Of a stretch of DNA of 4,828 nucleotides, positions 2,070 to 2,682 are shown in pieces. A program made the translations under genes and the position numbers. Under the pieces are notes generated by a model. It made no database searches, was not told where the DNA came from, and saw nothing but the letters and a program-made list of their open reading frames with translations. Positions within the stretch are counted from its first letter, which is position 1; every line of letters begins with the position of its first letter. The DNA comes from a virus (lineage: Duplodnaviria; Heunggongvirae; Uroviricota; Caudoviricetes). The stretch is from the IMG/VR virus record IMGVR_UViG_2541047125_000007. One strand, written 5' to 3'.

Positions 2070-2383
2070 GTGGCTGGAAGAAGTGGCGCTGGGCTGAAAT
2101 CCTGATACTCCGGCAGTGTGCGGGAACGATGAGAGTCGAAAGCATCGGTTATCTGATTGGCCGTAGTGAGTCAGCCGTCAGGACGAAAGCGCGGGAACTG
2201 GGTATCAGCATGATGTTACGGGGTGATTATCACCAGTCAGCCAAATGTTCACAGCGTGATATTGAGCTGGCGTGGCAACTGCATCAGCGTGGTGTACCCC
2301 GACGGGAAATTGCCGAAAAGTTTGGGATGAAGTTGGGCGCAGTGAATAACTACGTTTATTTCGACAGGAGGGTTCAGGAGTGA
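2066..2383 (+). CDS. Small helix-turn-helix DNA-binding protein
   Basis: GTG at 2066 overlaps the upstream stop as GTGA (translational coupling); alternative start is ATG 2111. Stop is TGA at 2381-2383. [35 protein letters not shown] is a classic HTH of the resolvase or sigma region-4 type, and the N-terminal half ([10 protein letters not shown]...[24 protein letters not shown]) resembles a second DNA-binding motif. The upstream part of the track ORF (from 1979) lies inside the previous gene. Confidence 0.6.
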
Positions 2384-2682
2384 GGGTGAGGGTTTATATC
2401 GCCGGTCCGATGACGGGATATGAAAATTTTAACCGCGAGGCATTTCACAAAACGGAAGAGGTGCTGAAACGGGAAGGGCATACCGTTTTAAACCCGGCAG
2501 TACTTCCGGACGGGCTGACTCAGCCACACTACATGGATATTTGCATGGCAATGCTCCGTTGCGTGGATGCGGTTTACATGCTGAAAGGCTGGCAGCAGTC
2601 GGCAGGTGCAGGGGCTGAGCTGGCACTGGAGGAGAAACCGGGCCATGCGGTGATTTTTCAGGAGGTGGGCAGTGAATATTGA
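2380..2682 (+). CDS. DUF4406-like protein (nucleoside 2-deoxyribosyltransferase-like fold)
   Basis: GTG at 2380 overlaps the upstream stop (GTGA) with AGGAGG at 2366-2371; alternative GTG at 2386 has AGGAG 5 nt upstream. Stop is TGA at 2680-2682. The motifs VYIAGPMTG near the N-terminus and GW..SAGAGAE.A.A...G..V near the C-terminus fit this superfamily as I recall it. Confidence 0.7.
   Translation: MRVRVYIAGPMTGYENFNREAFHKTEEVLKREGHTVLNPAVLPDGLTQPHYMDICMAMLRCVDAVYMLKGWQQSAGAGAELALEEKPGHAVIFQEVGSEY

Follow-up and report, generated by a model that had tools for sequence, protein, structure and literature searches.

A 100-aa protein encoded on the plus strand at positions 2380–2682 of a 4,828-nucleotide stretch of viral DNA (Caudoviricetes; IMG/VR record IMGVR_UViG_2541047125_000007; hereafter, the window) is a member of the DUF4406 family, and we infer, at roughly even odds (probability about 0.5), that in early lytic growth its substrates are 2'-deoxynucleoside 5'-phosphates, on which it works as an N-glycosidase or a phospho-deoxyribosyl transferase. 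Family membership, predicted fold, conservation pattern and genomic setting were established here. The gene and its family are already catalogued, and the gene is an ordinary accessory gene in this window. DUF4406 is large (9,087 clusters at 50% identity) and common (found in roughly one in four complete Escherichia coli genomes and in 310 deposited phage genomes), yet literature searches found no paper on its function (searches covered DUF4406/PF14359, DUF1937, YtoQ and WP_001310212, and found no functional study of any of them). If the proposal is true, dNMP N-glycosidase or transferase chemistry would give phages a widespread and very small means of acting on deoxynucleotide pools, and the inconsistent labels given to these proteins in different records (MazG-like pyrophosphatase, dCMP deaminase and nucleoside deoxyribosyltransferase) would be corrected.

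The ORF, which a preliminary description of this DNA had already read as a 100-aa coding sequence, was confirmed. It runs from a GTG start to a TGA stop (2680–2682), and its product is identical to RefSeq WP_001310212.1 ("DUF4406 domain-containing protein"). By sequence reading, an AGGAGG Shine-Dalgarno-like site (2366–2371, plus strand) lies 8 nt 5' of the GTG at 2380. A second AGGAG (2376–2380, plus strand) is followed by an in-frame GTG (2386–2388); if this were the start codon instead, the N-terminus would be as long as in most homologues (MK[IV]YIAGP). Both ends of the ORF overlap flanking plus-strand ORFs, which are given as context only. The upstream ORF (2066–2383), considered co-transcribed, encodes a small HTH protein (PHROG 323 transcriptional regulator) and its TGA stop (2381–2383) overlaps the DUF4406 gene start, while the downstream DUF4752 ORF (2672–2989, GTG start) overlaps the 3' end of the DUF4406 gene by 11 nt. 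The base composition of the DUF4406 gene matches that of its neighbours.

A profile search supported the family identity suggested in the preliminary description, with an E value of 2e-33 (115.1 bits against a cutoff of 22) for Pfam DUF4406 (PF14359) and an end-to-end alignment of residues 4–92 to profile positions 2–90 of 91. The match to PHROG 355, which is the equivalent of Pfam DUF4406 and is labelled "nucleoside 2-deoxyribosyltransferase", had an E value of 4e-43, and both scores are far beyond chance. All residues of the DUF4406-wide conserved set (F22, P43, Y51, W71, S74, G76, A77 and E80) are present. The two motifs from which the family had been recognized were located at residues 6–13 (YIAGPMTG, nt 2395–2418, comprising the beta1 Tyr6 and then a glycine-rich loop) and residues 70–80 (GWQQSAGAGAE, nt 2587–2619, which fits the pattern GW..S.GA..E and ends with the Glu80 codon at 2617–2619). 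The expected match to the Nuc_deoxyrib_tr profile (PF05014) was not obtained for the 100-aa protein at E ≤0.1, and this profile was touched by only 3 of 49 long DUF4406 relatives (best E value 7.7e-5). Hence, the link to the superfamily rests on DUF4406, a weak match to DUF1937, and the fold. NCBIfam and PADLOC searches with the protein gave no match, and PDB sequence and profile searches returned nothing relevant, such that structural relatives were found by fold comparison only. There was also no match to a TIR profile, nor does the protein have the Phe or Ala found beside the catalytic Glu in TIR-domain NADases (it has Tyr here). No recurrent Pfam fusion partner was found among the 49 long relatives. 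Phage homologues annotated as "MazG-like" or "dCMP deaminase" were considered as fusions and rejected, being misannotated stand-alone DUF4406 genes. A genuine DUF4406-DUF6378 fusion occurs in two loci; DUF6378 had no PDB relative, BLAST showed no resemblance between it and the PF18909 diphosphohydrolase, and its PHROG label is dubious, so the fusion was given no weight.

The AlphaFold model of the protein is confident (pLDDT 88.7) and bears out the proposed placement in the nucleoside 2-deoxyribosyltransferase (NDT) superfamily. Its flavodoxin-like alpha/beta fold matches solved superfamily members, resembling the N-(deoxy)ribosyltransferase-like fold of NDTs, DNPH1/Rcl and MilB, and the best match was the DUF1937 protein 1T1J. 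According to the model, the protein reduces this fold to a minimal form with four strands; it ends approximately seven residues past beta4 and is without the last beta-alpha unit. Known NDT-fold enzymes use this unit to complete the active site in trans; in NDT, Asn123' and the C-terminal carboxylate come from it. As the C-terminal unit with its trans ligands is missing, substrate binding must differ from that in DNPH1 and NDT.

To compare active sites, reference residues were checked against PDB entries, including the mutants E104Q, D80A and Y7F/D72N, and conservation was calculated over approximately 115 diverse DUF4406 homologues. Glu80, at the start of helix 4, aligned with the nucleophile position (DNPH1 E104, NDT E98 and DmtZ E103) in every alignment, and is conserved in 62/65 and 49/49 homologues. 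Tyr6 aligned with Y24 of DNPH1 and Y7 of NDT; family-wide, this position is Tyr in about 80% of sequences and Phe in about 15%. Hydrogen bonding of a Tyr to the catalytic Glu is associated with 2'-deoxy specificity (PMC11204291, PMC12884076). The loop G9-P-M-T-G13 aligned with G27-S-I-R-G31 of human DNPH1, a glycine-rich loop whose backbone amides bind the 5'-phosphate (PMC3834327). Gly76 aligned with DNPH1 Gly100, and Ser74, six residues before Glu80, aligned with both the phosphate-binding Ser98 of DNPH1 and the 5'-OH-binding Asp92 of NDT. Replacement of that Asp by Ser is also seen in nucleotide-specific members of the superfamily (PMC12884076). The pattern of a DNPH1-type, same-subunit phosphate site is therefore present in the alignment (Ser74, Gly76 and the glycine-rich loop). 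In rat DNPH1, Ser87, Ser117' and the main-chain nitrogens of Ile18, Arg19, Gly20 and Gly89 bind the phosphate, while Gly16, Gly89, Glu93 and Met119' bind the ribose (PMC3834327). All of the same-subunit ligands have DUF4406 counterparts (G9, M11–G13, S74, G76 and E80), with conservation of 83% or more for each and 93% or more for most across the diverse homologues, whereas counterparts of the trans-subunit ligands (rat Ser117' and Met119') are absent along with the C-terminal beta-alpha unit.

The active-site comparison invited by the preliminary description was thus upheld for the nucleophile and the beta1 Tyr, but not clearly for the acid. The classical catalytic Asp/Asn on helix 3 is not clearly present, the candidates being Cys55 and Asp53 in the segment YMDIC (residues 51–55, nt 2530–2544). 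The catalytic Asp column (DNPH1 D80, NDT D72) corresponds to Cys55 in the alignment, as is also implied by the 8-residue spacing to a conserved Asp before beta3, although the helix-3 register varied by one to four residues between runs. Position 55 is Cys in about 69% of the family and Asp in about 12%. The nearby Asp53 is conserved in the enterobacterial clade only (about 37% of the wider family), and Tyr51 is 98% conserved across DUF4406.

The region of the window is 100% identical to a Rac-like prophage of E. coli O157:H7 (TR01), in which the DUF4406 gene is co-directional with and downstream of racR, a cro-like HTH gene, ydaT, a DnaT-like O gene and a P-like replication gene. A terminator-like site was found at 1294–1310, at the end of the P-like gene, and none from there to the start of the DUF4406 gene; no plus-strand promoter-like site was found in the whole window. 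With this gene order, the overlapping ORFs, and no intervening promoter- or terminator-like site, the assignment to an early operon made in the preliminary description holds by context, the operon being the early rightward one of a Rac-like lambdoid prophage. The host O157 prophage is defective, and carries truncated exonuclease, RusA and DUF6645 genes. An obligate partner gene in E. coli prophages was sought and rejected, as neighbours were mosaic (HTH genes at 45 and DUF4752 genes at 27 of 80 close loci), and no nucleotide-metabolism gene neighboured DUF4406 in the E. coli prophages examined.

Across the wider family, members are mostly phage or prophage genes within replication modules. Distant loci were gathered using a degenerate DNA motif scan, and the nearest neighbours in 59 diverse viral clusters were replication and nucleotide-metabolism genes. 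DNA Pol A was located within two genes of DUF4406 in nine lineages, and a PF18909 dATP/dGTP diphosphohydrolase domain was encoded directly upstream in three; other neighbours included dUTPase, dNMP kinase, ribonucleotide reductase (RNR) and exonuclease genes. For example, an exonuclease and a dNMP kinase gene adjoin the DUF4406 gene of Arthrobacter phage Tweety19. The idea that loci with dATP/dGTP hydrolase or dUTPase neighbours belong to phages with 2-aminoadenine (Z) genomes was dropped, as none of six PurZ-sized ORFs from five DUF4406 loci was PurZ-like (these encoded subtilases, an RNR small subunit and a beta-helix protein). Nor are lambdoid coliphages known to carry Z.

The chemistry, the substrate phosphate, the deoxy preference and the biological role that we infer for the protein can be outlined as follows. 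Glu80 would attack C1' of a 2'-deoxynucleoside 5'-phosphate, releasing the base and forming a covalent deoxyribosyl-5-phosphate-enzyme intermediate, which could be resolved either by water (a DNPH1-like hydrolase) or by a second base (a DmtZ-like phosphodeoxyribosyl transferase). Tyr6 would orient Glu80 and disfavour substrates with a 2'-OH, while Ser74, Gly76 and the G9-P-M-T-G13 loop would hold the ribose and 5'-phosphate. The enzyme would serve to reshape or clean the deoxynucleotide pool during phage replication. The preliminary description had offered nucleotide pools or nucleotide-derived signals as possible targets. The former fits the evidence better, because the DNPH1 5'-phosphate ligands are conserved and replication and nucleotide-metabolism genes are neighbours in other phages. 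The latter fits worse, because enzymes in which a Tyr is hydrogen-bonded to the catalytic Glu are marked by 2'-deoxy specificity (PMC11204291, PMC12884076) and PADLOC gave no match; ribose-based immune signals are disfavoured as substrates.

Several other explanations were weighed against the proposed activity on deoxynucleotides. The PHROG 355 label, and that of many GenBank records, would make the protein a true nucleoside 2'-deoxyribosyltransferase that swaps bases between free deoxynucleosides for salvage. NDTs were the top Foldseek matches, and Pro42 of Lactobacillus leichmannii NDT is matched, at low confidence, by the invariant Pro43; a Pro in this region is described as typical of transferases (PMC12884076). 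We nonetheless consider this unlikely, given that the 5'-OH ligand Asp92 is Ser74 here, the second such ligand (Asn123') and the C-terminal tail belong to the absent segment, PF05014 was not matched at the threshold above, and the conserved ligands instead match the DNPH1 phosphate site. A different objection concerns this particular copy, which could be a decaying or non-catalytic remnant in the O157 prophage and at most a nucleotide-binding protein. The codons for residues 84–87 (GAG GAG AAA CCG, EEKP; nt 2629–2640, plus strand) carry two allele-specific changes at conserved sites, A84E and L87P, neither of which occurs in any other of the 60 close and 64 distant homologues. Ala84 is present in 59/60 close and 59/64 distant homologues, and the position corresponds to the conserved Ala108 of DNPH1 (Ala in 21/22 sequences) and Ala102 of NDT, indicating superfamily-wide conservation. 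As these substitutions affect conserved positions, and the prophage has several pseudogenes, the O157 copy may be impaired (weakened or inactive). However, the ORF is intact, every putative catalytic and ligand residue is retained, the model is confident at residues 81–90 (mean pLDDT 88), and the allele is identical in approximately 276 complete genomes, though these are largely one clonal lineage. That the protein is a remnant seems improbable.

It could alternatively be a counter-defence enzyme that destroys or pre-empts a nucleotide-derived immune signal or its precursor early in infection, such as cADPR isomers made from NAD or the dAMP/dIMP supply for dITP signalling. Kongming, for instance, is triggered by phage dNMP kinases, but no dNMP kinase was found among the window genes scanned or the genes annotated in the 25-kb prophage stretch. 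DUF4406 was not found in the anti-defence literature and the protein had no PADLOC match, while neighbours across the family are replication genes rather than anti-defence clusters. Moreover, the Tyr beside the nucleophile argues against ribose-based signals (PMC11204291), and a counter-defence role appears quite unlikely overall. We would also give little weight, at present, to a broader reading in which DUF4406 is a catalytically distinct form of the NDT fold with an open site (four strands, no trans-completing unit, and Cys for the general-acid Asp) and a non-canonical substrate, and represents an unrecognised nucleotide-sanitising or counter-defence enzyme of temperate phages from Proteobacteria to Actinobacteria. 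Example substrates for such a variant are a damaged or base-modified deoxynucleotide, the precursor of an immune signal that is itself a deoxynucleotide, or a nucleotide that forms part of a polymer.

Among known systems, the best structural neighbour, 1T1J (a PA1492-type DUF1937 protein from structural genomics; 18% identity, 125 aa versus 100 aa), is itself uncharacterised and hence allows no functional transfer. DNPH1/Rcl is a 2'-deoxynucleoside 5'-phosphate (hmdUMP) N-hydrolase and a member of PF05014. It shares about 22% identity with the DUF4406 protein, which differs in having Cys55 in the Asp80 column, no match to PF05014, and no C-terminal unit bearing the trans phosphate ligand Ser128' (rat Ser117'). 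The L. leichmannii NDT (1F8X) has the same fold, and its Tyr7, Glu98 and Ala102 align with Tyr6, Glu80 and position 84; however, Asp92 and Asp72 align with Ser74 and Cys55, and Asn123 and the carboxylate of the C-terminal Tyr157 are absent from the shorter protein (100 aa versus approximately 157 aa). DmtZ, from Gordonia phage Ghobes, belongs to the NDT superfamily and acts as both a dAMP hydrolase and a deoxyribose-5-phosphate transferase; its gene adjoins a dATP/dGTP hydrolase gene (PMC12884076). Like DmtZ, which acts on a dNMP, the DUF4406 protein is phage-encoded and of the same superfamily, and some DUF4406 genes likewise adjoin dATP/dGTP hydrolase genes. The two share the motif T/S-x-G-x-x-x-E, the backbone of which is modelled on the phosphate in DmtZ, and the acid position is non-canonical in DmtZ as well (Asn77; the aligned residue here is probably Cys55). 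DmtZ nonetheless lies outside DUF4406, aligns with the DUF4406 protein in hhalign at an E value of 0.087 over 48 columns only, matches PF05014 only weakly, is longer (161 aa, with five strands), and comes from phages with Z genomes. Lastly, in the passages of PMC11204291 and PMC12884076 that cite Sikowitz et al. 2013, MilB is described as acting on the ribonucleotide CMP; compared with the MilB/BlsM CMP/hmCMP N-glycosidases, as far as those passages describe them, the DUF4406 protein has the Glu-adjacent Tyr of the 2'-deoxy-specific enzymes.

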